From a candidate division CPR3 bacterium GWF2_35_18 (GTDB taxonomy: Bacteria > Patescibacteriota > CPR3 > GWF2-35-18): 64,000 nt of DNA. The DNA lies in NCBI GenBank assembly GCA_001771135.1, contig MESW01000002.1:69315-133314 (forward strand), in the 5' to 3' direction. The position numbers were made by a program, and so were the translations under genes. Below are positions 7,588 through 43,188 of this stretch, piece after piece. The notes under the pieces are model-generated. The model saw only the letters and a program-made list of their open reading frames with translations, had not been told where the DNA came from and did no database searches. Within the stretch, counting starts at the first letter, position 1. The number at the start of each line of letters is the position of its first letter.

Positions 7588-8268
7588 CTATTCTTCCATT
7601 TTCGCAGTTATAATCAGTCTTTTCAAGCTTGTTCCAGGAGGATAGCAGGTTTGAAGAGTGATTACCGGTTCGGCAAAATCTCTTGTTAAAGGTTCGATAT
7701 TAGTTGGATCAACAATGTCTTTACTATCAACGATATAGTTGTATCTGGTTCCTTTATAAAAGGTGACAATAGAATCTCCTTTTTCTAGTTGATGGAGTAG
7801 AGTAAAGACAGCATTGTATTTACTAATATTAAGAGGATCAACAGTAGAATGTGCAAATAGATATGCGTTTCCGATTTGCCCGGGGTATTTAGTTCCTTTT
7901 GCATGAGCGACTCCATTTTCCAGTGCTTGCCAATAACCTTCTCTAGTTGAAATATCAATATCAGGCTGAAAGTCAGTATTTAAATTGATCTTTTCGATTA
8001 TTATTCCAAATTCGGTTGATACCGGAGTTACTGACAAGGGTTTTTCTATTGGAATTTTGACAGAATTTGTTGACTCATCGGAGTTTAAATTTGATGATTC
8101 TTGATTATTACTTTTGAATAAGCGATGTAGCTGGTACTCAATTTCGGGTTTAATAATTGGGAAAAATATAAGGAAAAGATAGATAACACCACTAATTATT
8201 AAGAAGTTTGAGATATAAATAAGATATTTTCGATTTAGTTTTAGTTTTGGTTTTTTTTGTTTATTCAT
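7588..8268 (-). CDS. Sortase-family transpeptidase
   Basis: 226 aa. Has an N-terminal TM anchor, conserved His (GNAYLFAHS), catalytic TLxTC (ITLQTCYPP) and downstream Arg (KRLIITA). Confidence 0.7.
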   Translation of the reverse strand: MNKQKKPKLKLNRKYLIYISNFLIISGVIYLFLIFFPIIKPEIEYQLHRLFKSNNQESSNLNSDESTNSVKIPIEKPLSVTPVSTEFGIIIEKINLNTDFQPDIDISTREGYWQALENGVAHAKGTKYPGQIGNAYLFAHSTVDPLNISKYNAVFTLLHQLEKGDSIVTFYKGTRYNYIVDSKDIVDPTNIEPLTRDFAEPVITLQTCYPPGTSLKRLIITAKMEE

Positions 8269-8404
8269 GATTTTATAACCACATACATTTTTATTATTTT
8301 AAATAAGTTGGATATATAATATATACCTGAATTTAGTTCATTTGTAAAAAGAGAGATACTTAAGTAATGAGTAATAGTATATAAAATTTGGTAATAGTCT
8401 AATT

Positions 8405-8432
8405 TTGCAAATCAAATTAATTCGGGTATAAT
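8405..8432 (+). promoter_or_regulatory. Sigma70-like promoter (TTGCAA-16-TATAAT) oriented toward the tRNA-Ile(UAU) region
   Basis: TTGCAA at 8405-8410 and TATAAT at 8427-8432 in an AT-rich intergenic region. Confidence 0.3.
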
Positions 8433-8620
8433 CAAAAAATGAGCTAGCATTATTCTATTAATTTATGTTATACCCAAATAACTCTAAAATGGGTAATACT
8501 CAAATGTATTTGTTGTAAATCTGAGTTTTTTAATATAAATGATTTTTATAGATTAGTAGAAGAATAAAAATCAAGTGGTGCATAGCTTAAATGGGAGAGG
8601 ACTATGTTTATATTGCAAGT

Positions 8621-8660
8621 GGGTGCATAGATTAAGTGGTAGAGCACCAATCTTATATGG
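8621..8660 (+). pseudogene. Truncated 5'-half copy of tRNA-Ile(UAU) (acceptor/D-arm/anticodon arm only)
   Basis: GGGTGCATAGATTAAGTGGTAGAGCACCAATCTTATA closely matches the 5' 37 nt of the intact tRNA at 8666, then diverges. A more degenerate copy lies at about 8577-8600. Confidence 0.5.
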
Positions 8661-8665
8661 TGACT

Positions 8666-8740
8666 GGGCGCATAGCTCAGTGGTAGAGCACCAATCTTAT
8701 AAGTTGGCCGTCCGTGGTTCGAATCCACGTGCGCCCAGCC
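8666..8740 (+). tRNA. tRNA-Ile, anticodon UAU (reads AUA)
   Basis: Manual fold: acceptor GGGCGCA/TGCGCCC, D-arm GCTC-AGTGGTA-GAGC, anticodon stem CCAAT/GTTGG with loop CTTATAA (anticodon TAT), T-arm CGTGG-TTCGAAT-CCACG. Confidence 0.75.
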
Positions 8741-8767
8741 ACCATTAATTTAGAATAAATTTTAAAT

Positions 8768-8806
8768 ATAAGTTGGCCGTCCGTGGTTCGAATCCACGTG
8801 CGCCCA
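8768..8806 (+). repeat. Exact 39-nt direct repeat of the 3' half of tRNA-Ile(UAU) (anticodon stem to acceptor end); att-like remnant
   Basis: ATAAGTTGGCCGTCCGTGGTTCGAATCCACGTGCGCCCA at 8768-8806 is identical to 8699-8737. Confidence 0.7.
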
Positions 8807-8928
8807 CTTGCAATTCACTGAATGTTTTTTATCTCAGTATTCTTTTTTAATTTCAACATATCAACATATATTGAATTCAGATAGTAATTAATATACTATG
8901 GATATAGTTAAGCTTTTCTTTTCTAATT

Positions 8929-11900
8929 ATGAAAAAATTATCTAGACATTTTTGCTTTTTACTACTTTCTTTTAGTTTATTATTCAACTCAAGCTTTTTT
9001 CAAGCCCCTAATCTTACCTATGCAATTAATCAAACTAATACTCCGGCAACCGTTGTATTAGGACAGAACGGTTTTGATGCCTGTGATAGAGCTCCTAATT
9101 ATGGAGATATGAGAAGAGGTTTTAGTACACCTATACAAACCTTGATTGTGAATAATAAATTGATGGTTTCGGATTATGCTAATAGCAGAATATTTATTTA
9201 CAATACTATACCGGATTCTTATTTAGATGTACCAGATGTTGTGATTGGACAAAATAATCTATGTAATAATCTGATAAATAAATATCAAGGTCCTACAATA
9301 GTAGCGGCAGATACTTTATATTATCCATATTATATTTATTCTGATGGGACAAAACTCTTCGTAGCCGATTATTTGAATAATCGAGTATTAATTTACAACG
9401 AGATTCCAACTTCTAATAATGCTTCGGCAGATGTTGTAATTGGGCAACCAAACATGACCAGTAATACGGCTAATAATGGTGGTCTCGGGGCAAATACACT
9501 TTATAGACCTCTAGGAGTTTATTCTGATAACACCAAACTTTATATTGCTGATACAAGTAATAATCGAGTATTAGTTTACAATGAAATTCCAACTTCTAAT
9601 AATGCTTCAGCAGATGTTGTAATTGGGCAACCAAACATGACCAGTAATACGGCTAATAATGGTGGTAGAGCTGCTAATCGTTTAAATGCTCCTTATGCTA
9701 TAACTGTTAATAATGGGAAAATCTATATAAGTGATTTAAGTAATAATCGTGTATTGATTTTTAATTCTATTCCAACTTCAAATGATGCTTCTGCAGATAT
9801 TGTTGTCGGTCAAACTAACATGACGAATGGAGCTGCAAATCAAGGCGTAGCTGTAGCTTCAAACACCTTATCTTCGCCTATTTATACTCAAATAGCGAAT
9901 AATAAATTATATATTACTGATCGTGGAAATCACCGAGTATTAGTTTATAATAGTATTCCCATTGTAAATAATACTTCCGCCGATCTAGTGATAGGGCAAC
10001 CAAATATGACTAGTAACACGGCCAATAACGGTGGAATAAGTTCACAAACCCTTAATAATCCTACTGGTTTATCAGTTACTACGAATAAAATGATCATCAC
10101 GGATTCAAGTAATCATCGATTATTAATATTTAATACTTTACCCTTAACCAATAATCCGGAAGCAGATATTGTTATTGGCCAGAAAGATTTTACGCATAAT
10201 TTATCTTATATGGGAGCTGTTAATTCACAATCTCTATCGGCCGGTTGGAATACTGCTTTTTCCGATGGACAGAGATTATATGTCGTTGATTATGCTAACA
10301 ATCGAGTATTAATTTATAACTCAATTCCTACAGATAGTAATACTCCAGCCGATGTCGTAATTGGTCAACCGGACATGACCAGTAATATTGCAAATAATGG
10401 TGGATTAAGTGCAAAATCATTGAATCATCCCGTAGAAGTTTTTGCTTATCAAAATAAACTATATATATCAGATTACTCTAATAGTAGAGTATTAATATTT
10501 AATACTATCCCTTCAACTAATTTTGCCGAAGCTGATATTGTAATAGGGCAGCCAAATATGACCAGTAATACTGCTAATAACGGCGGCCTTGGGGCAAATA
10601 CTCTTTATTATCCAGGTTCTACGTATACTAATGGAGAAAAATTAATTATCGCCGATTATAATAATCATCGAGTTTTAATATATAACACAATCCCTACCAA
10701 TAATAATGCAAGTGCTGATGTAGTAGTCGGTCAACCAAATATGACAACAAGATCAATAAATTATGGAGGTTTAAGTGCTAGCTCTCTATATTATCCATAT
10801 GTTGTATCCTCAAACGGTAGTAATTTAGTAGTTACCGATTATAGTAATAGTAGAATACTTATTTATAACTCTATTCCTACATCGAATCTAAGTAGTGCTG
10901 ATGTAGTAGTTGGTCAACCAAATATGACTAGTAATGGATGTAATAATGGTGGAATAAATGCAAATACTGTGTGTAATCCATGGTATGCTTATACAGATGG
11001 TATTAGATTATTTATTGCCGATACTGCCAACTATCGAATACTTATTTATAATTCTATACCTACAAATAACTTTACAAACGCAGATATTCTAATCGGACAA
11101 CTTGATTTTACGCATAAGGATATTAATCAGAATGGAGATGCGTCGCAATATACTTTAACTGCTCCCTATTCAGTAATTACTGATAATCATAATTTAATAG
11201 TATATGATGCAATGAATTATCGTGTACTCTTCTACCCTCTTGGCCCTCAAAACACGGGTGTTACCACAGACAGCTATAGTAATTCTCAGAACATTGATTT
11301 AACCCTCTCTGCAGATGATGCAAAAGAGATGATGATCTCTGAAGATAGTGGATTTACCGGAGTCTCATGGGAATCATTCTCCACTTCCAAAGATTTTACC
11401 TTATCTACCATAGAAGGTAGTAAGACTGTCTATGTAAAGATGAGAGATTATGCTAATTACGAAGGAGATACTTTATCTACTACACTAACCTATGACGCTA
11501 CCTCTCCCACGGGGAGTCTTACCATCAACTCTGGAGCTACCACTACTAATAGCAGGGGAGTCACACTCACTCTTTCAGCTGACGATGCTCTTTCTGGAGT
11601 AGTCTCGATGATGATTTCTGAAGATAGTGGGTTTAATGGAGCATCCTGGGAAAATTATGATACCTCTAAGGATTGGATCCTTACCTCTGGAGATGGAATT
11701 AAGACAGTCTATGCTAAGTATAAGGATGTTGCTGGGAATATTTCTGAGAGAGTCTCTGGAAACATCGAGATGGATACTAATATCCCCGAAGGAGAGATTA
11801 TTATCGTTAGTCCTACGGAGAATGCTTATGTAAACAGTGAAACAGTCACTCTGACTTTAGAAGGAACCGATGAATTAACAGAGGTGTTTGAGATGATGAT

Positions 11901-12510
11901 CTCTGAAGATCCAAACTTCATCGGAGCTTCATGGGAAACATATACAACAACCAAAGAGTGGACATTTTCTGAGGGAGATGGAATTAAGGTAATATATATA
12001 AAGTATCGTGACTCCGCTCAGAATGAAAGCTTAATATACAGCTCCAGTATCATACTAGATACAGTAACCACTATAGATCTTACTAAGCTGGGAGGTAATA
12101 CCTTTAATACAGATATAACTGATTGGGAGATAGAAGATAATAAACCTAGCTTTGAAGGAACAGGGGAGGTAGATGCAGAGGTTGTAGTTACCATCAATTC
12201 TGATTCCATAATAGGAACTTCCATTGTAGATAGTGGTGGGAATTGGATCTGTACTCCAGAAACAGAGATTCCTGTTGGAAAGCATGAGGTAACGATAACC
12301 TCTACCGATCTAGCATCTAATACCGATACTCTCTCATTCAATCTTTCCGTACTTGGAGCTACTGATACACAAGAACAAATAGAAGGACCTGAAGAGCTAC
12401 CTAATACCGGAGTACAAACAATCATTATCTTCTTCATGGTAATAGCACTATTTTGGACAGCTACAAATCTGAGAATCATTGATAAACTTAGAAGTTTTAT
12501 GAAGAGATAA
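8929..12510 (+). CDS. Large LPXTG-anchored surface protein: signal peptide, about 14 NHL-type beta-propeller repeats, 3 tandem ~115-aa Ig-like repeats, Ig-like stalk, LPNTG sortase signal
   Basis: 1193 aa. N-terminal signal peptide. Repeated N(N/H)RVL(I/V)YN..IP..N..AD(V/I)V(I/V)GQPNMTSNTANNGG units. Three MMISED..GF.G.SWE.Y.T.K.W....GDGIKTVY.KY.D repeats. C-terminal LPNTG, then a hydrophobic segment and a basic tail (RIIDKLRSFMKR). Confidence 0.85.
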   Translation: MKKLSRHFCFLLLSFSLLFNSSFFQAPNLTYAINQTNTPATVVLGQNGFDACDRAPNYGDMRRGFSTPIQTLIVNNKLMVSDYANSRIFIYNTIPDSYLDVPDVVIGQNNLCNNLINKYQGPTIVAADTLYYPYYIYSDGTKLFVADYLNNRVLIYNEIPTSNNASADVVIGQPNMTSNTANNGGLGANTLYRPLGVYSDNTKLYIADTSNNRVLVYNEIPTSNNASADVVIGQPNMTSNTANNGGRAANRLNAPYAITVNNGKIYISDLSNNRVLIFNSIPTSNDASADIVVGQTNMTNGAANQGVAVASNTLSSPIYTQIANNKLYITDRGNHRVLVYNSIPIVNNTSADLVIGQPNMTSNTANNGGISSQTLNNPTGLSVTTNKMIITDSSNHRLLIFNTLPLTNNPEADIVIGQKDFTHNLSYMGAVNSQSLSAGWNTAFSDGQRLYVVDYANNRVLIYNSIPTDSNTPADVVIGQPDMTSNIANNGGLSAKSLNHPVEVFAYQNKLYISDYSNSRVLIFNTIPSTNFAEADIVIGQPNMTSNTANNGGLGANTLYYPGSTYTNGEKLIIADYNNHRVLIYNTIPTNNNASADVVVGQPNMTTRSINYGGLSASSLYYPYVVSSNGSNLVVTDYSNSRILIYNSIPTSNLSSADVVVGQPNMTSNGCNNGGINANTVCNPWYAYTDGIRLFIADTANYRILIYNSIPTNNFTNADILIGQLDFTHKDINQNGDASQYTLTAPYSVITDNHNLIVYDAMNYRVLFYPLGPQNTGVTTDSYSNSQNIDLTLSADDAKEMMISEDSGFTGVSWESFSTSKDFTLSTIEGSKTVYVKMRDYANYEGDTLSTTLTYDATSPTGSLTINSGATTTNSRGVTLTLSADDALSGVVSMMISEDSGFNGASWENYDTSKDWILTSGDGIKTVYAKYKDVAGNISERVSGNIEMDTNIPEGEIIIVSPTENAYVNSETVTLTLEGTDELTEVFEMMISEDPNFIGASWETYTTTKEWTFSEGDGIKVIYIKYRDSAQNESLIYSSSIILDTVTTIDLTKLGGNTFNTDITDWEIEDNKPSFEGTGEVDAEVVVTINSDSIIGTSIVDSGGNWICTPETEIPVGKHEVTITSTDLASNTDTLSFNLSVLGATDTQEQIEGPEELPNTGVQTIIIFFMVIALFWTATNLRIIDKLRSFMKR
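9397..9668 (+). repeat. Near-identical intragenic tandem repeat (unit about 183 bp, 61 codons) inside the LPXTG gene
   Basis: 9397-9485 and 9580-9668 are about 97% identical at DNA level. More diverged copies with the same period occur through about 10950. Confidence 0.6.
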
Positions 12511-12524
12511 ATTAGAAATATGGA

Positions 12525-13397
12525 TTAGAGTTCTTCGAGTTTGAAGGTTTCTTTGTAAGCAGTTCTAACATGTTCTAAGTATTTTTCTGTAGTTGATAAT
12601 CTTTTGTGTCCTACGATTTTTGAGATCAAAATGAGGCTAGTTCCTTTCATGAGGTGATGGGCGATAAAGGTATGTCGAAGGTCATTTACTTTTGCGTTTT
12701 TTACTCCCGCCTTACTAAAATATCGATCGATTGCAGATCGAATATTTCTGATTAATAGCGGTTTTCCAGTTTTAGTCACAAAAAGAGTTTCTTCTTTTGT
12801 GTTTGGCCTGATTTTTAAATATTCAGATATTGATTTAATTACAGATTTATTTAAAGGAACATTACGGCCTTCGTGTCCATGAGATGGTTGAATTATTAGC
12901 TCTCCGCTATTTTTTGTTTTATCAATAATTACATCTTCTACTCGAAGATTTCTCAATTCTCCAATACGAATACCTGTTTGTAAAAGAATTTCTACAATGG
13001 CAGCTATTCTTGGATCCTCACGACAAGAGTCTCTTAAAGCTCGATATTCAATTTTTGATAGAATTCTGGGAGCTGGAGTATCAAACTTGGGATGCGATAT
13101 TAAATTTGCAGGATTGTCAGTGATATATTCATTTAGTTCAAGAAAGCGGAAAAAAGTCTTAGTGCTATTTGTCTTTCGGGAGATACTTTTAGTGGTATAA
13201 TTTTCTTTTTCAAGTTTTGCCATGAAGGCTTGAAGATCGTTTTTGTTAATATGAGTTGTTCTAGTTTTACTTAAATTTTCTAGAAATTCTATAAGTTGTT
13301 CTATATCTTTACCATATGCAAGAATAGTCGCTTGAGAGCGGTCTTTTTCCGTAAGATGTTCTACAAATTTTTTGTGAGCTTCTTTCAATTCGATCAT
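12525..13397 (-). CDS. Tyrosine site-specific recombinase, XerC/XerD family (possible integrase). Start trimmed to the internal Met of the 12525-13514 ORF.
   Basis: C-terminus LRHTFIAHHLMKGTSLILISKIVGHKRLSTTEKYLEH matches the R..H..R..Y catalytic signature. The N-terminal SAM-like core-binding domain begins MIELKEAHKKFVEHL. The first 39 codons of the ORF look non-coding and overlap the neighbouring ORF. Confidence 0.8.
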   Translation of the reverse strand: MIELKEAHKKFVEHLTEKDRSQATILAYGKDIEQLIEFLENLSKTRTTHINKNDLQAFMAKLEKENYTTKSISRKTNSTKTFFRFLELNEYITDNPANLISHPKFDTPAPRILSKIEYRALRDSCREDPRIAAIVEILLQTGIRIGELRNLRVEDVIIDKTKNSGELIIQPSHGHEGRNVPLNKSVIKSISEYLKIRPNTKEETLFVTKTGKPLLIRNIRSAIDRYFSKAGVKNAKVNDLRHTFIAHHLMKGTSLILISKIVGHKRLSTTEKYLEHVRTAYKETFKLEEL

Positions 13398-13683
13398 ATT
13401 AACAGTGAATAATAATTTAAACGACAATATATTATGATATTCTTTTAATGAAAAGAAATTAAGGTTGGATAATTGTCGAAGTCGTAATGTAGCATATCTT
13501 TTGTTTTGTGTCAAGAACTATAGGATATATAATCTTTTTATTTCTTTATTAACAAGCCATTTACATATATTTTATAAAGTTGAAAATGTTAATCAGTGGC
13601 CGAAAATAGATATCATTAAGAATGTTTTAAATTTGAAATTCTACTTTGCAATTTTTAATCTTTTAAGTATATACTTAAAAGAT

Positions 13684-16634: not shown

Positions 16635-17567
16635 ATGAACGATTCTAAGATAGTTATTTTTGACGCACATGCTTTGATACATCGAGCTTATCATGCTTTA
16701 CCACCCCTTACAACTTCGGAAGGGATTCCAATAAATGCTGTCTACGGATTTGTGAAAATAGTTTTAAATATATTAGAAACAATGTCTCCCAATTATGTTG
16801 CGGTGGCTTTTGATACAAGAACTCCTACTTTTAGACATGTGGACTACAGTGAATATAAAGCAAATCGTCCTCCTTCTCCAGATGATTTGAAAATACAATT
16901 TCCAATTGTTAAACAGATAGTTGAAGACCTTGGATTATCTTCTTTTGAAGTTGAAGGTTATGAAGCTGATGACGTTATCGGGGCTTTAGTTAATAAATTT
17001 GAAAAAAGTGTTTCCAACTCTGAAATATTTATAGTTACTGGAGATTTTGATGCTACTCAGCTTGTAAATGATCATATAAAGATTTTTACTCTTGGGAAAA
17101 GAATTGAAAATACTTCTATTTGGTCTAAAAAAGATTTGATGGAAAAATTCCAACTTTCTTATCCAAAACAGATTATCGATTATAAAGCTTTAAGAGGGGA
17201 TCCGTCGGACAATATTCCTGGCGTTAAAGGTATTGGGGAGAAGACAGCCTCAATATTATTAAAAAACTTTAAGAACCTAGAGACAATTTATGAGAATATT
17301 GATAAAGTAGAGTCAAAATATCGTCAAAAGTTAGTAGATGATAGGACAAATGCCTTTCTATCAAAGAAATTAGCGACTATTATCAGTGATGTGCCACTAT
17401 CTTTTAAAGTAGATGAATGTAAATATCATAGTTTTGATAGAGAAAAGATAGTACCTGTTTTGGAAAAATACGAATTTCGAAGTTTAATAAAAAAATTCAC
17501 GAGAAAAGATATCTCAAAAACAGTACAAAAAAAAGACGAAAATGAACAACTCTCCTTTATCGAATAA
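16635..17567 (+). CDS. 5'-3' exonuclease (FEN-like; N-terminal domain of DNA polymerase I) as a separate ORF
   Basis: 310 aa. MNDSKIVIFDAHALIHRAYHAL..., GYEADDVIG, and H3TH region (GIGEKTA). Confidence 0.85.
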   Translation: MNDSKIVIFDAHALIHRAYHALPPLTTSEGIPINAVYGFVKIVLNILETMSPNYVAVAFDTRTPTFRHVDYSEYKANRPPSPDDLKIQFPIVKQIVEDLGLSSFEVEGYEADDVIGALVNKFEKSVSNSEIFIVTGDFDATQLVNDHIKIFTLGKRIENTSIWSKKDLMEKFQLSYPKQIIDYKALRGDPSDNIPGVKGIGEKTASILLKNFKNLETIYENIDKVESKYRQKLVDDRTNAFLSKKLATIISDVPLSFKVDECKYHSFDREKIVPVLEKYEFRSLIKKFTRKDISKTVQKKDENEQLSFIE

Positions 17568-18855
17568 AAACAACAGAGAATCAGTAAGTATTTCAGACGA
17601 ATTACATCCATACAATGTTGATAATATAGATGGTCAGATACAAAACCTGTTAACAACTATGAGCAAAGTGGGATTTCTTATAGATGTTGAGGTTATAAAT
17701 AATCTAGAAGTGGAGGTTGAGGATCTTCTTAAAAAGTTATCTGTTAGGATATTTCATCATATCGGATATGATATAAACTTAAATTCGTCAAAGCAAATTG
17801 CAAAGTTATTATATGAAGATTTAGAGCTTCCGTCAGGTAAAAAGAAAAAAACCGGTTTTTCCACTGATGAAGTGACATTGAAAAAAATTAAAAAGCTACA
17901 TCCAATAATTCCCTTAATATTAGAATATAGAACGGTTTACAAATTAAAAAGTACCTACTTAGAATCATTAAGATGTCGTATTGAGGAAGATGGAAGGATT
18001 CATTCGACGTTTCTACTTGATGTGGCAAGTACTGGGAGGATAGTTAGCAGAGACCCAAATTTACAAAATATTCCGATCAGAGGTAGTTGGGGAGAAAAAA
18101 TTCGAAAAGCTTTTATCGTTCCTTGCGAGAAGATATTAATTGCGATTGATTATTCTCAAATAGATCTGCGAGTATTAACACATTTTTCTAAAGAATCAAA
18201 ATTAATAGAAGCTTTCAAGCAAAATCAAGATATTCATCTCTCAACAGCAATGGAGATTTTTAATAAAAAAGCTTCGGATATTACTGCTGATGAACGTCGA
18301 ATAGCAAAAACAGTGAATTTTGGCATTATTTATGGAATTAGTCCTCACGGACTTTCTGAGAGTTTAGAAATTAATCAAAAACAAGCTGCTTATTTTATCA
18401 AAACCTATTTAGATAAATATCCTCAGGTAAAACAGTATCTTGATCTAAGTCGACAGAATGCTTTAAAAAATGGTTATACGGAAACACTTGGTGGAGAAAA
18501 AAGATATATTCCAGAGTTAAAAAGTAAGAATCATTTTATTCGAAGTTCTGGAGAGAGAATGGCTATTAACTATCCTATTCAGGGAAGTTCCGCGGAGATA
18601 ATCAAATTGGCAATGTTAGATATTGATTGTGAATTTGTTAGACGAAAATTATCGTCTTCAAAGATGATTTTACAAATTCATGATGAATTAGTCTTTGAAG
18701 TAGAGAATGAGGAAAAAGATGCTGTAATAAAAATCGTAAAAGAAAAAATGGAAAATGTAGTAAAACTCATTATTCCGTTGAAAGTTAGTATTAAAGAAGG
18801 TGTCAATTGGGGAGAGATGACAGAAATTTTAAAATTGGAGATGGCAATAAAATGA
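17542..18855 (+). CDS. polA: DNA polymerase I polymerase domain only (no 3'-5' exonuclease domain)
   Basis: 437 aa. Family-A motifs: motif A DYSQIDLRVL, motif B RRIAKTVNFGIIYG, motif C QIHDELVFE. Overlaps the upstream exonuclease ORF by 26 nt in a different frame. Confidence 0.85.
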   Translation: MNNSPLSNKNNRESVSISDELHPYNVDNIDGQIQNLLTTMSKVGFLIDVEVINNLEVEVEDLLKKLSVRIFHHIGYDINLNSSKQIAKLLYEDLELPSGKKKKTGFSTDEVTLKKIKKLHPIIPLILEYRTVYKLKSTYLESLRCRIEEDGRIHSTFLLDVASTGRIVSRDPNLQNIPIRGSWGEKIRKAFIVPCEKILIAIDYSQIDLRVLTHFSKESKLIEAFKQNQDIHLSTAMEIFNKKASDITADERRIAKTVNFGIIYGISPHGLSESLEINQKQAAYFIKTYLDKYPQVKQYLDLSRQNALKNGYTETLGGEKRYIPELKSKNHFIRSSGERMAINYPIQGSSAEIIKLAMLDIDCEFVRRKLSSSKMILQIHDELVFEVENEEKDAVIKIVKEKMENVVKLIIPLKVSIKEGVNWGEMTEILKLEMAIK

Positions 18856-23209: not shown

Positions 23210-24997
23210 ATGCTCTTTCAAGATCTTGCTAATTATTTTGAAAAACTAGAAAAAACTACATCTCGTAATGAAATTACGAAAATTTTGAGTGAACTTTTCA
23301 AAAATCTTTCCGTAGAAGAGGTGAATGTTGTTTGTTATCTGTCGTTGGGGAAATTGAAGCCATCATATGAATCTTTAGAATTTAATCTTGCCGAAAAGAT
23401 GATAGCCGAACTTTTATCTCGAATTAGTCAAAAGACAAAGGAAGAAATAAATAAAGATTTTAATGTTATGGGAGATTGGGGTGATTTGGCGGCTAACTTG
23501 ATTAAAAGAAAAACGAGTGATCTGACAATCAAAGATGTTTATAAAGAGCTTCTTTCTTTAGCCAAAATTGAGGGTTATGGATCTCAAGAAGTAAAGATAA
23601 ATAAGCTTTTATCCTTATTTTCGCATATAAATAGTGCATCTGCTAAATATGTTTTACGTGTTATTCTAAAGAAGTTAAGACTCGGTTTCTCGGATATGAC
23701 CATTCTTGATGCGTTGTCTTTTATGGAAGTCGGAGACAAGAGTCTAAGAAAAGAGATCGAAGAATCATACAACACAGTTGCGGATATTGGAAAAGTTGCT
23801 TCGTATTTTAAGGCTAAAGGTTTAAAAGGTTTAAAAGAGCTATCTGTTACTCCGGGAATACCTGTAATTCCTTCTGCGGCAGAAAGGCTTCCGAGTGCGG
23901 AAAAGATTTTTGAAAAGATTGGAGTTTGTTTGTTAGAACCTAAAATCGATGGTTTTCGGCTCCAAGTACACTTAAATAAATTAAAAACTGAGATTTCAGA
24001 TGATAACCCTCTTTTTGCAAAAGAAGAGCCTTTTATACGATTCTTTTCTCGAAATTTAGAAGATATGACGGGAATGTTTCCGGAGATTAAAGACGTCGTT
24101 TCTAAAATTGATTGTGAATCTTTGATTATAGAGGGAGAAGCAGTCGCTTTTAATCATAAAAATAATCGGTTTTTACCTTTTCAATTAACCATATCGCGTA
24201 AAAGAAAGTATGACATTCAGGAAAAATCTACAGAGCTACCTTTGACTCTATTTGTATTTGATTTGCTTTATTTAAATGGAAAAAGCTATATTAATGAGTC
24301 TCTAATTGAAAGAAGAAAAATATTAGCAGAACTCATTCCAGAAAATGTAAATAGTCTGCAACTAATTCCACAACAGAAGGCAGTTTCGGTGCAAGACATC
24401 TCCAAATATTTTCTCGAAAAAAAGAAAGCCGGTTTAGAAGGAATAATGGCAAAAGTTCCTGATTCTTATTATGAAGCTGGATCAAGAGGATTCCATTGGA
24501 TTAAGTATAAAAGAGAAGAAAGTCAAGGCCTTGAGGATAGTATTGATGTTGTTGTTTTAGGTTATTATTATGGTCAGGGAAAAAGGACAAGTTTCGGTAT
24601 TGGCGCTTTATTGGTTGGAGTTTATAATAAGAAAGGCGAGATTTTTGAAAGTATCGCTAAAATTGGTACAGGAATTAAAGATGAAGAGTTTATAACTATT
24701 AAAAAGGATTGTGATTTATTAAAAAGAAAACTCCCTCCCAAAAATGTGATTGTCCCTAAAGCTTTAATTCCAGATGTTTGGGTGGAGCCTCAAATTGTTG
24801 CTGTTATCCTTTCTGATGAGATAACAAGATCGCCGCTACATGCAGCTGGTGCAAGTAAAGATGGGAAAGGTTATGCTTTACGTTTTCCACGTCTTACTAC
24901 TTGGCAAAGAAAAGATAAGAGCATTTATGATATAACAACTGTATCAGAAATCGAAAGACTTTATCAAAATCAAAATAGGAAATCTTCTAAAAATTAA
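23210..24997 (+). CDS. ATP-dependent DNA ligase
   Basis: 595 aa. Motif I LEPKIDGFR (KxDG), adenylation and OB-fold motifs. Confidence 0.85.
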   Translation: MLFQDLANYFEKLEKTTSRNEITKILSELFKNLSVEEVNVVCYLSLGKLKPSYESLEFNLAEKMIAELLSRISQKTKEEINKDFNVMGDWGDLAANLIKRKTSDLTIKDVYKELLSLAKIEGYGSQEVKINKLLSLFSHINSASAKYVLRVILKKLRLGFSDMTILDALSFMEVGDKSLRKEIEESYNTVADIGKVASYFKAKGLKGLKELSVTPGIPVIPSAAERLPSAEKIFEKIGVCLLEPKIDGFRLQVHLNKLKTEISDDNPLFAKEEPFIRFFSRNLEDMTGMFPEIKDVVSKIDCESLIIEGEAVAFNHKNNRFLPFQLTISRKRKYDIQEKSTELPLTLFVFDLLYLNGKSYINESLIERRKILAELIPENVNSLQLIPQQKAVSVQDISKYFLEKKKAGLEGIMAKVPDSYYEAGSRGFHWIKYKREESQGLEDSIDVVVLGYYYGQGKRTSFGIGALLVGVYNKKGEIFESIAKIGTGIKDEEFITIKKDCDLLKRKLPPKNVIVPKALIPDVWVEPQIVAVILSDEITRSPLHAAGASKDGKGYALRFPRLTTWQRKDKSIYDITTVSEIERLYQNQNRKSSKN

Positions 24998-34573: not shown

Positions 34574-34774
34574 TACCCATGCTTCTCGTATGAGAAGTTT
34601 CTTTTTTCGTTCTTTAACATTCAAGAAGTGGTAGGAATTTAGGCGAAGTGTTGTCTAAATTCTTAGTACAAGACTTCGTCAATTTTTTTTGTAATCATTG
34701 TTAAACCAAGTAATTGGTTTAACTCGTTTACTCTTTATGATATTTCCTAAATTTATTTAGGATTTGTCATATTT

Positions 34775-36276
<1,502 letters not shown>

Positions 36277-36375
36277 TAAGGAGTATCACTCCAACTTCAC
36301 GACTGGAGTCTTTATAGGTGTATGCTACAACCATAAAGGTAGCAGTTCCTACCACTTTTTGAAAGTTAAAGATAC

Positions 36376-36406
36376 AAAAAACGGAGCTTGTTGCTCCGTT
36401 TTTTTG
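36376..36406 (+). terminator. Rho-independent terminator-like hairpin downstream of 16S
   Basis: ACGGAGC-ttgtt-GCTCCGT followed by T7. Confidence 0.6.
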
Positions 36407-36459
36407 TTTATGATATATTCAATTCGTTTAAAAATTGGAGTTTCGCAGCTTGTTAATTT

Positions 36460-36534
36460 GGCGCGGTAGCCAAGTGGAAAGGCAGGAGTCTGCAAAACTC
36501 CTACGCGTCGGTTCGATTCCGACCCGCGCCTCCA
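36460..36534 (+). tRNA. tRNA-Cys (GCA)
   Basis: Acceptor GGCGCGG/CCGCGCC, anticodon loop CTGCAAA, T-loop TTCGATT, CCA encoded. Confidence 0.85.
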
Positions 36535-36545
36535 AAGATAAATAG

Positions 36546-36622
36546 GGGCGATTAGCTCAGGTGGTTAGAGCGCCAAACTGATAATTTGGAGGTCCATGGT
36601 TCGAGTCCATGATCGCCCACCA
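36546..36622 (+). tRNA. tRNA-Ile (GAU)
   Basis: GGGCGAT...anticodon loop CTGATAA...TTCGAGT...ATCGCCC-A-CCA. Confidence 0.85.
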
Positions 36623-36627
36623 TAGAA

Positions 36628-36657
36628 TAAAAACTACGTTATTAACGTAGTTTTTTT
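36628..36657 (+). terminator. Rho-independent terminator after tRNA-Ile
   Basis: ACTACGTT-att-AACGTAGT followed by T7. Confidence 0.65.
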
Positions 36658-36678
36658 CGTTTGTGTTATACTTTTTTT

Positions 36679-37140
36679 ATGAATAAAAAGATTCAAATTC
36701 CAGGAATTGATTATATCGGTATAACGACTCCTTTCTACTGTAATGATGGTAAGGGTAATTTTCTTTTACATCGCAGAAGTAAAAATTGCCGTGATGAACA
36801 GAGAAGATGGGATTTGGGTTCGGGTCAATTAGAGTTTGGGTTAACTCCAGAGCAAAACGTTCTTAAAGAGGTTTTTGAAGAATATGGTTGTAGTGGAACT
36901 ATTCAAAGTCAACTTCCGCCACACTCTATTTTTCGAAAGCATCAAGGGGTAGATACTCACTGGTTGGCAATTCCTTTTTTTGTACAAGTTGATCCACAAA
37001 AAGTAAAGATTAGTGAACCCACTAAAATTGATGAGATTGCCTGGTTTACTTTAGATAATTTACCAACTCCTTTACATTCTGGTTTTTCCTATACTCTAAA
37101 GACTTACAAACAGTATTTTGAAAAGTATAAAAAGCGATAA
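36679..37140 (+). CDS. NUDIX-like hydrolase (hypothetical), located between 16S and 23S
   Basis: Nudix-like GSGQLEFGLTPEQNVLKEVFEEYGC. ATG at 36679, whereas the track start 36661 is TTG. Confidence 0.6.
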   Translation: MNKKIQIPGIDYIGITTPFYCNDGKGNFLLHRRSKNCRDEQRRWDLGSGQLEFGLTPEQNVLKEVFEEYGCSGTIQSQLPPHSIFRKHQGVDTHWLAIPFFVQVDPQKVKISEPTKIDEIAWFTLDNLPTPLHSGFSYTLKTYKQYFEKYKKR

Positions 37141-37707
37141 TTATACTAATGTAGCAGTCTCTATTATCTGGTTGCCAAAACGCCAAAAATGGGCATTCGT
37201 TTTTCCTTTTTTTATTTTGATTTTCCGACTCTTTTTCTCTATAGTTAAATATTGGAGATTAACGACATTTAATGTCTTATTATTACTATAATTTCAGTTC
37301 TAAAAAACTCCGCTCAAAAAGGAGAAAAAGATACTTTATTTCGGCTCTTTACTCATTTTTTACAATTTTCTTTTTATTTTCAATATTTTTACCCTATTTT
37401 AAATACAATAACGTAGCTACATATGTAAGTGGAACAACTTCTACAAATACGACCTAGGACTTGTGAAATTAGTCGACGTTAAACCTCTTTAGCTTAGTAA
37501 TCCGACGATAATTACCAATAAATACGGATACTATAGTTTCTAGTGAAAAAGGGGAAGAATCAGATTGTGATTGAGTCAAAAAAGATGAAAAGACTAAAGC
37601 AGTCTATCGATCTGAAGTGATTACAGTATAGACTAACAATGGACATCTTGGAAAAAATATCAAAATCTAGTATTATTATAGTAATAATCAAAGGAGGTGA
37701 TAAATAA

Positions 37708-38217
37708 ATGGAAGAAGTAAAAACAGAAACTCCCGTAACCACAACAGCTTATGAACATGCTGGTTTTGGTGTTAGATTGGTTGCGGCGATTATAGACGGA
37801 ATTTTAATCAGCGTTGTTACTGGAATTATAAACGGAATTTTTGGAACTGCTTTAGGTGCAGGAACTTCATTAATGAGTACCGATGTGATGACAGATGAAG
37901 CTGCTGCTGGTCTTATCGCCACGGCAATTGGAGGATCATTTATTCTCATGTTTGTAAATATGGCGATCTCCTGGGGTTATTATATTGTTATGACCGGAGC
38001 AAAAGGAGCGACAATTGGAAAAATGATTATGAAGCTTGAAGTCGTCGATGAAAATTATCAAAAAATTTCTTATGGTAAAGCGGCTTTGCGCGAAATTGTC
38101 GGGAAATTTATTTCCAGTCTAGTATTTTGTTTAGGATATATATGGGTTTTATTTGATGATAAAAAACAAGGTTGGCACGATAAAATTGCCAAAACTTACG
38201 TCATCAAAAAAAGTTAA
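37708..38217 (+). CDS. RDD-family membrane protein
   Basis: RDD motif: R..A.IID.. (GVRLVAAIIDGIL), later D and D (WHDKIA). RBS AAAGGAGGTGA. Confidence 0.8.
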   Translation: MEEVKTETPVTTTAYEHAGFGVRLVAAIIDGILISVVTGIINGIFGTALGAGTSLMSTDVMTDEAAAGLIATAIGGSFILMFVNMAISWGYYIVMTGAKGATIGKMIMKLEVVDENYQKISYGKAALREIVGKFISSLVFCLGYIWVLFDDKKQGWHDKIAKTYVIKKS

Positions 38218-38280
38218 GGTTTAAAGAGAGTGGGTAAGTAGATTCATCTACTTACCCCTCCTTTAATAAAAAGAGGAAAA

Positions 38281-39255
38281 ATGAACATCGATTTTCGCAA
38301 AATAATTAAACGATCTTGGGAAATTATTAAAAAGAATAAAATACTCTGGATTTTAGGAATGCTTCTTGGTGGAGCTAGTGTGGGAAGTGGCGGAGGGGGG
38401 AGTGGATATGACTTTGACAGTTCTGATGTCGATAAAATCAAAAACTCCGATTTTGTAGATGGGGATCAACTAACTTCAGCGATAGATTCTTTTTTAACTT
38501 CTCTTTCTGAAGTTATTGCCAAAATTCCACCATATATTTGGATACTTATCATAGTGACTTTAATTAGCGTTATCATCCTCGGAATTATTGTAAAAATCTA
38601 TTTGAATAACTGGGCAGAGGGAGCTGTTATTGGTCTTGTGAATGGAGCAGAAAAAGGAGAGGAAATTAGTTTTCGTAAAGGCGCAATTTATGGAATTCGT
38701 TTTGCTAAGAGGTTAGTTTTAATTTCAATAGTTCCCGGTTTAATCTATTTTTTAATTTTAATCGCTTTTGGTTTGCTTATTGTTTTCAGCCTGCTTTTCC
38801 CCGTACCGGTACTGAATATTATCTTAGCAATTATTTTTGGCTTCATTCTAATATTTTTTATGCTTATAGGATCTTTATTTTTATCTCTGCTAAAGATAAT
38901 TTCTATCCGAATCGTGGTTGTCGAAGATAAAGATTATCTAGAAGCATATAAGGAAGCTTTTACTTTTGTGAAAAAAGCCTTCCTTGAAATTATCATTCAA
39001 GGAGTTATCAATTATAGTTTTGGTTGTGGTTTTGGTTGTCTCTATTTGATTTTTTTAATCGTAATTATTGGAATTATTATTTTAGGATTTTTTATTCACG
39101 TTGGGTTAGGTTTACCACTTGCTCTTTTAGGTTTACTTATTTTAATTGTTAGTGGAGTATTCGTAGGAGCTTTTAATTCCTTTAAATCTGCAAACTGGAC
39201 GCTACTGTACAAACAGGTTAGAGAAAAACAGAAGGAGGGGAACAATGCAAAGTAG
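38281..39255 (+). CDS. Polytopic membrane protein with N-terminal Gly-rich/acidic segment (hypothetical)
   Basis: 324 aa. GGASVGSGGGGSGYDFDSSD, then about 6 TM helices. Confidence 0.5.
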   Translation: MNIDFRKIIKRSWEIIKKNKILWILGMLLGGASVGSGGGGSGYDFDSSDVDKIKNSDFVDGDQLTSAIDSFLTSLSEVIAKIPPYIWILIIVTLISVIILGIIVKIYLNNWAEGAVIGLVNGAEKGEEISFRKGAIYGIRFAKRLVLISIVPGLIYFLILIAFGLLIVFSLLFPVPVLNIILAIIFGFILIFFMLIGSLFLSLLKIISIRIVVVEDKDYLEAYKEAFTFVKKAFLEIIIQGVINYSFGCGFGCLYLIFLIVIIGIIILGFFIHVGLGLPLALLGLLILIVSGVFVGAFNSFKSANWTLLYKQVREKQKEGNNAK

Positions 39256-39796
39256 TATTAAGCAATCTCAATATCAAAACGCAGGGTTTATTGTTCGGTT
39301 TTTGGCTTTTCTCGTAGACCATTTGATTCTTTGGCTCCCTTTTTTATTAATTAGTCTTTTTATCACTTTAGGTAGTAGTTCTACATCAGATCTTTTAGTG
39401 AAATTAGGAATATTAACCCTTTATTATCTTATTATTCAGGAAATTTTATGGCTTTTCTATCAAACACTAACGACTTCCTATTGGGGCGGGTCTCTGGGAA
39501 AAGAGGCTTTTAACCTCACGATTCTGAACGAAAAAGGAGAAAAACTAAGTTTGAGGGATTCACTTTTTCGTTACGTAATTGGTTATACGGTTTCAGGACT
39601 AGTTTTTGGCTTAGGGTTTTTATGGATTATCAAAGATGATCAAATGAGAGCTTGGCATGATCTGCTTATTGGTTCAAAAGTTGTTGTTAAGGAAAAAGAC
39701 TACATTTTGGGAGTTTTATCTCTTTTGGGATTAGTGCTTGTTTCTAGTATTTTTATCTTTATTTTGGTATTTAAAATCGTCTCTTTCATGAACTAG
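39245..39796 (+). CDS. RDD-family membrane protein (second copy)
   Basis: GFIVRFLAFLVDHLILW...AWHDLLIG. Overlaps the previous gene by 11 nt. Confidence 0.75.
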   Translation: MQSSIKQSQYQNAGFIVRFLAFLVDHLILWLPFLLISLFITLGSSSTSDLLVKLGILTLYYLIIQEILWLFYQTLTTSYWGGSLGKEAFNLTILNEKGEKLSLRDSLFRYVIGYTVSGLVFGLGFLWIIKDDQMRAWHDLLIGSKVVVKEKDYILGVLSLLGLVLVSSIFIFILVFKIVSFMN

Positions 39797-39805
39797 TTTT
39801 AGTAT

Positions 39806-39835
39806 TTGACTTTCAGTTTCCGTTTGTGGTATAAA
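39806..39835 (+). promoter_or_regulatory. Promoter for tRNA-Ala/23S/5S unit (TTGACT-18-TGgTATAAA)
   Basis: -35 at 39806-39811 and -10 at 39830-39835, with the same extended -10 as the 16S promoter. Confidence 0.45.
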
Positions 39836-40010
39836 TTAAGTCGCGAAATGATGTACTTTTTCAACCAAAACAACGGATCGATGGGAAGCCTTAGAAGCAA
39901 TCGAGAAAAATCATATATTTTCCAAGATTCTCGAGCCACTTAGACTTTTTCCATCAAAACAATTGAACATATTTTTTAGGACCCTTGAGGGGGATTTTTT
40001 AATTTTTTCC

Positions 40011-40086
40011 GGGCCTGTGGCGTAGTTGGTAGCGCGTCTCGTTTGCAACGAGAAGGTCAGGAGTTCGAATCTCCTCAGGTCCACCA
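40011..40086 (+). tRNA. tRNA-Ala (UGC) with G3:U70
   Basis: GGGCCTG...anticodon loop TTTGCAA...TTCGAAT...CAGGTCC-A-CCA. The G3:U70 identity pair is present. Confidence 0.9.

Positions 40087-40223: not shown

Positions 40224-43188
<2,965 letters not shown>

Follow-up and report, generated by a model that had tools for sequence, protein, structure and literature searches.

Mobile DNA classically lands at tRNA genes, and the known route restores the gene by means of an in-register fragment, leaving one-sided scars that flank large islands. Bacteria of the candidate phyla radiation (CPR) have tiny genomes and few recognisable mobile elements. Textbook partial tRNA repeats of the attL/attR type are described in PMC9897764, in its summary of Reiter 1989 and Williams 2002. 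Genes for tRNA-Ile(UAU) provide the AUA decoder in bacteria lacking tilS, namely Mycoplasma mobile, Bifidobacterium and Neorickettsia (PMC3575796). The tRNA-Ile(UAU) gene described here resembles these in having a genome-encoded UAU anticodon within an otherwise canonical tRNA-Ile with A73. Unlike the CPR arrays presented below, the three published cases are single ordinary genes, and no fragment arrays are reported there (PMC3575796).

The window analysed in this work (the whole stretch of 64,000 nucleotides from a candidate division CPR3 bacterium) contains an intact tRNA-Ile(UAU) gene, tRNA positions 1-73, at 8666-8737 of the forward strand. ARAGORN calls a tRNA-Ile(tat) at 8665-8741 and Rfam model RF00005 places the canonical cloverleaf at 8666-8737, with 70.7 bits against a gathering score of 29; the two agree on the identity that a sequence-only reading had assigned from the CTTATAA anticodon loop and its UAU anticodon. 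The gene (unit 2) scores 98.6 bits with model R1, forms 21 of 21 stem pairs and has the discriminator A73, directly after which no CCA is encoded. Judged by these features it is presumably functional. AUA makes up 20.2 per 1000 codons in the 64-kb window, and at about 20 per 1000 an AUA-reading tRNA would be heavily used. Two CAU tRNAs lie within the 64 kb, at 14299 and 14511 as already noted in the sequence-only reading; the one at 14299 is initiator-like, with a C1xU72 mismatch. The same reading had held a genomic UAU tRNA-Ile to be uncommon in bacteria. Within CPR it is not unusual, being present in each sampled lineage that keeps the locus and in one Parcubacteria genome.

Unit 2 is surrounded by half-genes in the order 5'-5'-3'-3', a nested and not a tandem arrangement, in which the gaps between pieces are only 8 nt and 29 nt. 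The 5' half of unit 1 (8621-8657, forward strand) corresponds to tRNA positions 1-37, from which it differs by three substitutions and one 1-nt insertion, and ends in CTTATA; its alignment score of 52 was reached by 0 of 5000 shuffles. The 3' half of unit 1 (8767-8806, forward strand; direct repeat D2) spans T34-A73 and begins 29 nt past A73 of unit 2, whose positions 8698-8737 it repeats with 100% identity over 40 nt. Its initial TATA (8767-8770) repeats the TATA at the end of the unit 1 5' half (8654-8657). When the two halves are rejoined, 20 of 21 cloverleaf pairs form, the D-stem being broken by a mismatch in the 5' half. Farther upstream, at about 8575-8612 of the forward strand, direct-repeat families D3/D4 in a 45-nt register, together with alignment, point to unit 0, a 5' half of an old tRNA-Ile(UAU) that ends ...GTTTATA (anticodon positions 34-37) and for which no 3' partner was found. 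Its alignment score of 20, against at most 13 in 466 intergenic control windows (shuffle P=0.0016), marks unit 0 as a degenerate yet real copy. The two 5' copies had been proposed earlier, at 8621-8660 and 8577-8600, and both are confirmed with the limits given here; the exact duplicate of the 3' half also stands, although its length is 40 nt and not the 39 nt first given. What had been missed was the nesting and the complementarity of the flanks of each unit.

The 5' flank of unit 2, TGGTGACT (8658-8665, forward strand, 8 nt), forms inverted repeat I2 with 8737-8744, and the 3' flank, GCCACCAT (8738-8745, forward strand), is its complement. The two make 9 pairs with one mismatch and, when A8657/T8745 is counted, the paired stretch extends exactly to the insertion junction. 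Unit 1 has a different pair of flanks (5 of 8 positions differ): its 8-nt 5' flank TTGCAAGT (8613-8620, forward strand; inverted repeat I1) is complementary to 8806-8813, and its 3' flank CTTGCAAT (8807-8814, forward strand) is the complement of 8612-8620. Nine contiguous pairs extend the acceptor stem of unit 1, and the complementary flanks TTGCAAGT/ACTTGCAA link 8621-8657 with 8767-8806. The inverted repeats 8612-8627/8799-8814 and 8657-8672/8730-8745 are 16 nt long each and 94% complementary. The two halves thus seem to be one older gene, apparently split at the TATA of its anticodon loop by an insert of 109 bp (unit 2, 8658-8766), which lies inside unit 1 (8613-8814) with the 5' remnant of unit 0 upstream. 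The right end of the insert is an AT-only spacer (8746-8766, forward strand) containing a hairpin, AATTTA (8747-8752), loop gaa and TAAATT (8756-8761); similar small hairpins precede 3' halves in L014, L016, L019 and L025, four of the related loci described below. Positions 32-39 of the loop, CTTATAAG, are an 8-bp palindrome with TATA (34-37) at its centre. The DNA of the anticodon arm as a whole reads CCAATCTTATAAGTTGG. A transcript of 8606-8820 folds far better than its shuffles (z=-6.9), with an outer 16-bp stem predicted. An assembly artefact, which would have left the fragments missing from an independent assembly as the sequence-only reading had envisaged, is ruled out: the 8570-8815 block (246 nt) is identical in at least seven independent assemblies, which differ in sample and in assembler, and an eighth differs by a scaffold gap of Ns only.

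The same nested architecture, with up to five shells, is present in five further lineages (CPR3/WWE3-like). Syntenic loci were located by means of the sortase gene (7588-8268, reverse strand), whose place to the left of the array is conserved; the relatives are all short metagenomic contigs, and about seven lineages were sampled. L014 contains four 5' halves, one intact gene and three 3' halves, with unique flanks joining the pairs A/A', B/B' and D/D'. The arrangement is b5'[c]b3' plus two older 5' halves in L016, a5'[b]a3' plus one older 3' half in L019-L022, W5'[A]W3' in L012 and L015, and a5'[b]a3' in L025; in L013 the site is occupied by one clean gene only. The contigs of L029 and L023/L024 end right beside xer (see below) or lack the tRNA, and are uninformative on arrays. 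Fragments occur only beside tRNA-Ile(UAU), none being found beside Met, Cys, Ala or Ile(GAU) genes. In the window and its relatives the innermost copy is always intact (20-21 of 21 stem pairs) and the outer shells decay. Stem pairs in L014 fall outward from 21 (E) through 20 (D) and 19 (B) to 18 (A). Outer units are damaged by a 40-nt insertion (L014 B), by truncation (L012 W5') or by loss of pairs (L025 a, 16 of 21); the outer unit of L019 is undamaged (21 of 21). Unit A (flank TCAAAACT) is the intact gene of L012/L015 and the decayed outermost shell of L014, and the 40-mer of the window recurs as a relic 3' half in L015. Divergent tRNA types alternate inside the arrays, with acceptors GGGCGCA versus GGAGCCG and with different T stems.

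Pairing of the flanks over at least 9 contiguous bp, extending the acceptor stem, was found in 8 of 12 nested units, where about 5e-4 per unit is expected by chance. It was found in 0 of 2 solitary tRNA-Ile(UAU) genes and in 0 of 16 other tRNA genes; the latter controls rule out that long flank pairing is a general trait of tRNA genes here. The pairing stops at the junction with 8-nt flanks (six units) as well as with a 13-nt flank (one unit), and the inverted flanks differ completely among units (TGGTGACT, TTGCAAGT, TCAAAACT, TTCTCACT and TAATCGCT, for example). Beyond the right arm there are 11-115 nt of extra sequence, and the inserts of the relatives measure 100-210 bp. All 5' halves end in ...TTATA, and 3' halves start with (T)TATAAG (5 of 8) or ATAAG (2 of 8), so that the end of one and the start of the other overlap by 2-5 nt, mostly (T)TATA. 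Comparison by eye revealed no convincing common attP-like arm or conserved cassette termini.

In the history that the locus probably records, small mobile tRNA cassettes inserted one after another into an essential tRNA gene and replaced it each time (serial insertional replacement). A short DNA cassette would enter the (T)TATA in the anticodon loop of the resident tRNA-Ile(UAU) gene, carrying a complete tRNA-Ile(UAU), usually with an 8-nt 5' flank, a complementary 3' flank and a short AT-rich tail bearing a hairpin. The insertion would split and kill the resident gene, and the cassette tRNA would take over AUA decoding, until the following cassette entered the new gene and the cycle was repeated. 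Under such a scheme 5' halves would accumulate upstream and 3' halves downstream, the innermost gene would be the youngest and the sole intact one, and the outer shells would decay. The alternation of divergent tRNA types inside arrays argues for foreign donors rather than local copies. The pairing reaches the left junction and goes no farther, for short and long flanks alike, from which we infer that the cassette travelled as a discrete molecule with, at its 5' end, the A opposite the final T of the 3' flank. Such a molecule suggests an intermediate in hairpin or single-stranded form, whose recessed 3' end (A73) was extended with its own 5' leader as template. The perfect 40-nt repeat of the window is best explained by local gene conversion between adjacent 3' halves; the last 22 nt of L014 B', which are the same in the neighbouring E, count as support for such conversion.

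Several observations count against serial replacement by cassettes. The 3' halves of L014 come in the order B', D', A', with C' missing, and this imperfect nesting requires that a later rearrangement or deletion be invoked. Units a and b of L019, b of L016 and b of L025 have flanks that pair weakly or not at all; some 5' flanks measure 22, 27 or about 90 nt, making the cassettes non-uniform; and, unlike the ends of known transposons, the cassette ends are not conserved in sequence. Pristine relic halves in L012/L015 (40 of 40 positions of the 3' half match the window's living gene) contrast with heavily decayed orthologous relics in L014, with the result that a simple neutral-decay clock fails. 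Neither a free donor copy nor a filled-versus-empty polymorphism within a species was found. The distal att repeat that the sequence-only reading suggested searching for did not turn up either, the exact 40-mer having 0 matches in viral contigs, like a 26-mer and a 20-mer. In genome and metagenome collections (leaving out the window's own lineage), the 20-mer matched only plain Parcubacteria tRNA-Ile(UAU). Patterns for unit types and junction signatures matched only coding sequence or ordinary phage tRNA clusters in viral contigs, and blastn of the array against plasmids and phages returned generic tRNA similarity only. No transposase, reverse transcriptase, HUH nuclease, TnpA or Rep is present in the 64 kb and, in a Pfam search for a mobilising enzyme, essentially all window ORFs of at least 90 aa yielded housekeeping genes only. 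No precedent was found in the literature on nested or disrupted tRNA genes and on CPR tRNA introns.

To the right of the array lies a gene for a surface protein with NHL-repeat and Big domains (Pfam; 8929-12510, forward strand), which is outside the nest. It fills a lineage-variable segment between the array and xer that is empty in L013, holds ORF266 in L015 and PIN/GDPD/RibD_C/L-PSP genes in L019-L022, and for which no bounding tRNA fragment was found. The xer gene (12525-13397, reverse strand) encodes a Xer-family tyrosine recombinase of 290 aa, as identified by Pfam and NCBIfam. Its best NCBIfam matches are XerC/XerD/XerA, under the equivalog cut-offs. The sequence-only reading had correctly placed a Xer-like recombinase 3.7 kb downstream, but the part of an island integrase does not fit the protein. 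The protein is 60-65% identical across CPR3, WWE3 and Woykebacteria, and its gene always adjoins divIC, also where no tRNA-Ile(UAU) is nearby (L017/L018, L029). Because of this conservation and constant neighbour, which differ from the patchy, island-linked distribution of an island integrase, it appears to behave as a resident housekeeping-type Xer. Throughout the window GC skew stays positive, without a switch, which rules out a replication origin or terminus (dif) at the locus. One promoter-like site (8404-8432) was not above chance, and the promoter/terminator scan gave no terminators.

The sequence-only reading had interpreted the fragments as att-like scars of tyrosine-recombinase-mediated integration and excision. 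In the classical model of this kind, tyrosine-integrase islands or prophages would have crossed over in the anticodon loop, a tRNA segment restoring the gene each time, and the islands would later have been deleted. That they are footprints of repeated insertion at the anticodon loop is borne out, but their layout is nested and has no attL-island-attR order. In keeping with att sites, the 40-nt identity block is a direct repeat of the tRNA 3' segment that spans exactly the anticodon to the discriminator (T34-A73) and ends at the gene end; lineage-variable genes lie just downstream of the array and a tyrosine recombinase gene is close by. However, the repeats enclose 29 bp (100-210 bp are inserted in the relatives) and not a kb-scale element bearing an integrase, other pieces being 8 nt apart; 5' halves equal 3' halves in frequency; and loop crossover with an attP-borne tRNA predicts alternating 5'-3'...5'-3' chimeras instead of 5'-5'-3'-3'. 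A restored gene would moreover have flanks from different partners, whereas here the two flanks of one unit pair with each other, as the classical model does not predict; this mutual complementarity means that both flanks came together with the whole gene. Since it is implausible that recurrent deletions would stop at exactly 8 nt in seven units, the recombinase belongs to the conserved core as a Xer adjoining divIC, the variable segment is not bounded by a further fragment, and the 40-mer and related patterns are missing from viral contigs, such scars are an unlikely explanation. Still less credence can be given to the neighbouring Xer inserting minicircle or folded single-strand cassettes at the anticodon arm as a pseudo-dif, in IMEX-like fashion. 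For Xer and integron integrases, single-stranded DNA folded into a hairpin is a possible substrate, and very short homology suffices; the anticodon arm has an AT-rich palindromic core between inverted repeats, and xer lies 0.05-3.7 kb from the array in six lineages, among them L025, where the relative orientation is reversed. Against this, the xer-divIC pair is kept where tRNA-Ile(UAU) is not nearby (L017/L018, L029), the skew gives no terminus, and the reconstructed attP-like junctions have no common arm sequences. A search for a dif-like site beside xer found as sole conserved motif ATCCTATAGTTnTTGACA, which is promoter/operator-like and unlike the anticodon arm, so that the target is neither the terminus dif nor a dif-like site. 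No evidence tying Xer to the insertions was found; Xer as the enzyme is nevertheless a sub-hypothesis compatible with serial replacement.

Purely local events would dispense with foreign DNA altogether: slippage at TATA or unequal crossing-over would duplicate half-genes with 45- and 69-nt periods, template switching at quasi-palindromes would make the flanks, and gene conversion would do the rest. The 45-nt register of the three 5' copies, the 69-nt distance between the 3' copies, the identical tRNA type of units 1 and 2 in the window, the flank TATAATCGCT common to a5' and c of L016 and the signs of local gene conversion all agree with such a history, but it is very improbable in light of the flanks and of the tRNA types. 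Units 1 and 2 have flanks with 5 differences in 8 positions, but in both units, the dead one included, the 5' flank matches its 3' counterpart, and duplication cannot yield arrays that mix GGAGCCG and GGGCGCA acceptors and different T stems. As neither other tRNAs nor solitary tRNA-Ile(UAU) show flank pairing, template switching at acceptor stems is not general in these genomes. It is barely conceivable that the arrays have a function at the RNA level, with the outer halves as exons of a tRNA that is split or contains an intron, or with the extended stems as processing signals; the nest would then be a working precursor and not a fossil. The insertion point fits the canonical intron position 37/38, the predicted fold of 8606-8820 has its outer 16-bp stem (z=-6.9) and the outer unit of L019 is intact with 21/21 pairs; repeated tRNA sequence alone, however, would give such a z-score, and outer units are mostly damaged (window unit 1, L014 B, L012 W5', L025 a). 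The intact exons with either a ribozyme or a bulge-helix-bulge motif that mark a tRNA intron are not found here: no Rfam intron family reached its gathering score, and the junctions, as read from the sequence, have no bulge-helix-bulge in canonical register. No tRNA splicing endonuclease is known from bacteria, which further argues against this possibility.

Serial replacement by tRNA cassettes has features in common with several known mobile systems. As with tRNA-targeting integrative elements, the target is a tRNA gene (here at the anticodon loop), the insert keeps tRNA function, displaced fragments form direct repeats and events stack. Unlike these elements, the cassette brings a whole new gene instead of an in-register partial copy, displaces both old halves in nested order, measures 100-210 bp without integrase or cargo, duplicates about 4 bp (TATA) only and gives each unit its own complementary flanks. 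IS200/IS605-derived PATEs, IS91/Helitron-like elements and MITEs share with it a size of about 100-200 bp, strong secondary structure in or close to the termini, a short, invariant AT-rich target (TTATA here) used in a single orientation with little or no target duplication, and a small subterminal hairpin near the right end. They differ in that the cassette ends are not sequence-conserved, the "left hairpin" is a functional tRNA gene and the sole target is the cassette's own homologue, no dispersed copies having been found in the 64 kb. Sequence-conserved inverted repeats at both termini, which define TIR transposons and MITEs, are lacking; for a PATE of the IS200/IS605 type, there is no TnpA (Y1 HUH) in the 64 kb, and the right-end hairpins are small and not conserved in sequence. 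Homing elements (group I/II introns, inteins) likewise occupy a cognate conserved site in an essential gene whose function is kept, in an allele-to-allele style, and element-in-element nesting is known for introns; integron attC sites, like the paired flanks, conserve structure and not sequence. In contrast to homing elements and integron cassettes, function here is kept by replacement and not by splicing, the old gene being permanently destroyed, and neither a ribozyme, a homing endonuclease nor an integron integrase is involved.

It is possible, and proposed only tentatively, that the cassettes constitute a new class of tiny non-autonomous elements: self-targeting tRNA cassettes with a structure-defined, sequence-variable hairpin stem, which would home into the palindromic anticodon-loop DNA of a homologue, be retained by destroying and replacing an essential gene, and spread horizontally among CPR via a hairpin or single-strand intermediate. 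An essential decoder gene would here have been overwritten repeatedly by complete copies from divergent donors, on cassettes of 100-200 bp. If the process is active, it would represent a new minimal selfish element of a "replace-and-addict" kind and a route for the horizontal exchange of translational components in CPR bacteria; it might also provide a natural model for the origin of split, permuted and intron-bearing tRNA genes, and the stacked shells would make up a built-in relative chronology. The arrays also break assemblies and yield spurious tRNA and pseudo-tRNA calls in metagenome-assembled genomes; the L012, L015 and L003 contigs end or have gaps within arrays.

ARAGORN placed six tRNA genes in the window, among them a tRNA-Ile(tat) at 8665-8741 whose canonical 72-nt cloverleaf (8666-8737; 70.7 bits with Rfam) runs from G1 to A73, with the anticodon loop CTTATAA and 21 of 21 stem pairs. 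A repeat finder showed its 3' half, from anticodon base T34 to the discriminator, to be repeated exactly (8698-8737 = 8767-8806) and identified three copies of the 5' half, spaced at a register of 45 nt. Relative to the gene, copy 1 (8621-8657) has three substitutions and one 1-nt insertion; copy 0 (approximately 8575-8612) is degenerate but scores 20, against a maximum of 13 among 466 intergenic windows (shuffle P = 0.0016). The 246-nt block at 8570-8815 is identical in seven independent assemblies (Rifle-aquifer samples and MAGs), which rules out an assembly artefact, and an eighth differs only by a scaffold gap. The intact gene with flanking half-copies described by an earlier, sequence-only reading is thus confirmed, as is the exact duplication of the 3' half, except that the latter measures 40 nt, not 39.

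What that reading overlooked is that the pieces are nested. Two inverted repeats returned by the repeat finder each tie together the two sides of one unit: I1 (8612-8627/8799-8814; ATTGCAAGTGGGTGCA/TGCGCCCACTTGCAAT) links 5' half 1 with the downstream 3' half, the pairing covering 9 nt past the acceptor stem, while I2 (8657-8672/8730-8745) links both sides of the intact gene. The pieces thus run in the order 5' half 0, flank, 5' half 1, a second flank, the intact tRNA with its matching flank and a 21-nt tail, 3' half 1 and, outermost, the flank matching the first. Both 5' halves terminate with TTATA (anticodon 34-37) and the 3' half begins with TATAAG, so that TATA borders the 109-bp insert (8658-8766) on both sides. 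The sequence CTTATAAG (tRNA positions 32-39) is an 8-bp palindrome with TATA at its centre.

Scanning the public genome, metagenome and viral collections for DNA patterns yielded nothing useful, so relatives were reached via the neighbouring sortase and recombinase proteins. They share the gene order sortase, tRNA-Ile(UAU), variable segment, xer, divIC, two tRNA-CAU genes and ftsH. Contig L013 has a single clean tRNA gene, free of fragments and with non-complementary flanks. In L014, four 5' halves (A, B, C, D) precede an intact gene, E, followed by three 3' halves (B', D', A'). In L016, two older 5' halves (z, a) precede a unit, b, split around intact c. L019-L022, practically identical in four assemblies, have intact b within split a plus one older 3' half, and intact b within split a recurs in the more distant lineage of L025 (Xer 66% identical). 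L012 and L015, which come from one sample and overlap by 30 nt, were combined: a truncated W-type 5' half is followed by TCAAAACT, an intact gene of A type, AGTTTTGA, a tail and a 3' half, also W-type, that equals the window 40-mer at 100% identity. A covariance model made from seven intact genes matched fragments only beside tRNA-Ile(UAU) genes; beside the genes for tRNA-Met, -Cys, -Ala and -Ile(GAU) it matched none. Within the arrays, short-read assemblies are prone to break or leave gaps (L012, 1-46; L015, 2620-2675; an N gap in L003), so that nested tRNA loci are probably underrepresented in MAGs, or misannotated.

Flank pairing was counted outward from pair -1:73. At least nine contiguous pairs were found in 8 of 12 nested units (chance approximately 5e-4 each in the local AT-rich background), in neither of two solitary tRNA-Ile(UAU) genes and in none of 16 other tRNA genes. 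The flanks are unrelated from unit to unit (TGGTGACT, TTGCAAGT, TCAAAACT, TTCTCACT, TAATCGCT and ATGATTATATATT, for example), each being complementary to its own partner. The 5' flank is 8 nt long in seven units, with exceptions of 13, 22, 27 and about 90 nt, and pairing stops precisely opposite the A adjoining the outer half in seven units (six with an 8-nt flank, one with a 13-nt flank). The complementary 3' flank begins directly after A73 and ends exactly opposite the insert's first nucleotide, so that the cassette has the look of a discrete molecule whose 5' end is defined. This 3' flank is followed by a short, AT-rich and often palindromic tail.

In the best-supported history, also the simplest and one we consider fairly probable, small tRNA cassettes replaced the resident gene by serial insertion. 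Each cassette, holding a complete tRNA-Ile(UAU) gene, would insert at TATA in the anticodon loop of the gene then in place, killing it and taking over its role. The recessed 3' end of the cassette may have been filled in on its own leader, as a snap-back hairpin. The data point to a hairpin or single-stranded intermediate, or else to end-joining plus snap-back synthesis where the palindromic loop was broken; they do not point to double-strand site-specific recombination. We would place far less confidence in any specific enzyme. None for insertion was found, all ORFs scanned in the 64 kb being housekeeping. Among recombination and repair genes, with Fpg, RecF and Fic nearby, lies a gene (23210-24997) for an ATP-dependent DNA ligase with the three domains of the archaeal/eukaryotic kind (DNA_ligase_A_N/M/C), which could be relevant to end-joining ideas.

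The sequence-only reading had taken the fragments for att-like scars of a tyrosine recombinase. Target sublocation, function-preserving logic and stacked fragments agree with that idea; nesting, inserts of only 100-210 bp and matched flanks do not. The classical interpretation is accordingly only partly supported: if an integrase had recombined the resident tRNA with one borne on attP inside the loop, alternating chimeras would surround an island (X5'-Y3'...Y5'-X3'), with flanks from different partners, whereas the order seen is 5'-5'-3'-3'. Local duplication can generate neither the divergent tRNA types nor two dissimilar pairs of flanks with a perfect match inside each pair. Among known systems, the nearest is the integrative element that targets a tRNA gene and restores it (Reiter 1989 and Williams 2002, as related in PMC9897764). 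The three features just credited to the scar idea are common to both, whereas three defining features of such elements are missing here: the repeats do not enclose an island carrying its own integrase, the fragments are not one-sided, and the restored gene is not chimeric. The behaviour also resembles that of small hairpin-bounded non-autonomous elements and homing elements, but the locus lacks their conserved ends, ribozymes or nucleases. Our literature search found no paper on nested tRNA genes of this kind; that they represent a genuinely new class, a self-targeting mobile tRNA cassette, is a tentative idea that we rate as rather unlikely.

A Xer/IMEX-like role in the insertions is of low probability. 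The gene at 12525-13397 encodes a full-length recombinase of the Xer family, 60-65% identical across CPR3, WWE3 and Woykebacteria. An identical protein is listed under candidate division CPR3 bacterium GWF2_35_18, and the window comes from a bacterium of the candidate phyla radiation (CPR). The recombinase gene lies close to the array in L025 too, despite reversed orientation, which favours such a role; but xer always adjoins divIC, even where no tRNA-Ile(UAU) is near, GC skew gives no sign of a replication terminus at the locus, and the sole conserved motif beside xer is promoter-like and unlike the anticodon arm. This motif, ATCCTATAGTTnTTGACA (window approximately 13470-13500, upstream of xer), is conserved in at least seven lineages (also L013, L014, L015, L016, L023 and L025). 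In it, a partly palindromic CCTATAG precedes a TTGACA resembling a -35 box, so the motif may be a conserved promoter or operator; it does not resemble a dif site. The segment between array and xer varies by lineage: the window has an NHL/LPXTG gene there, L013 has nothing, and different genes occur elsewhere. This is consistent with a general hot spot for insertions, but the covariance-model search found no further tRNA fragment bounding the segment. In L001 (1659-4415), an assembly of the same population, the gene call for the NHL/LPXTG surface protein gives 918 aa, versus 1193 aa in the window (8929-12510), and its distance from the tRNA array is longer; this shorter sortase-substrate gene could be a strain-level variant or a frameshift.

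When split halves are rejoined, damage grows outward from innermost genes with 20-21 of 21 pairs; in L014, E has 21, D 20, B 19 and A 18. A also has a damaged T-loop, and B a 40-nt hairpin insertion in the D-loop. The latter (L014 approximately 4700-4660, minus strand; CCTGCCCGCAATCGCTAAAGCGATAGCTTTTGCAGGCGGG), GC-rich and perfect, looks like a separate miniature palindromic insertion into the dead 5' half. The A unit is alive in L012/L015 and a dead outermost shell in L014, with the flank and upstream remnant (...CTTATA, then TCAAAACT) common to both; shells are thus passed on and later buried by further insertions. Strongly divergent tRNA types (acceptors GGGCGCA, GGGCGTA, GGAGCCG and GGGTACA) are mixed in the arrays, with replacement in both directions, an argument for donors from beyond the locus. 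The perfect 3' half 1 of the window, with 0/40 differences versus a decayed 5' partner, is best explained by local gene conversion; in L014, the 5' T-stem strand of relic B' is of one type, but the last 22 nt of the relic equal those of neighbouring E exactly. The non-functional relic 3' half at L015 2600-2561 (minus strand) matches the window's living 3' half (8698-8737 = 8767-8806) at 40/40 positions, L015 being a different species (Xer only 83% identical). W relics are pristine in L012/L015 versus heavily decayed orthologues in L014; constraint, conversion or recent transfer are possibilities.

Genomic tRNA-Ile(UAU) is already known from tilS-less bacteria (PMC3575796) and appears common in CPR. 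AUA accounts for 20 per 1000 codons here, so its decoder is heavily used. If tRNA-Ile(UAU) is the sole AUA decoder (no tilS, no tRNA-Ile2), this would explain why replacement-type insertion was tolerated and then fixed. Directly 3' of A73 the window gene has GCCACCAT and so lacks an in-register CCA; one is encoded by four of the five remaining tRNA genes, and a CCA-adding enzyme gene lies at 52088-53509. This clade's tRNA-Ile(UAU) genes have no encoded CCA; those of the more distant L025 and of Parcubacteria encode CCA and have no complementary flanks.

Elsewhere in the window, the rRNA operon (34773-43444) is interrupted: 16S, tRNA-Cys and tRNA-Ile(GAU) are followed by 3.4 kb of protein-coding genes, then tRNA-Ala, 23S and 5S. 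The interruption holds genes for a NUDIX protein (36661-37140), two RDD-family proteins (37708-38217 and 39245-39796) and a hypothetical protein (38281-39255). The 5'-3' exonuclease and polymerase parts of DNA polymerase I are encoded by two genes (16635-17567 and 17542-18855), as also in L019-L022; in L025 there is a single 710-aa gene.
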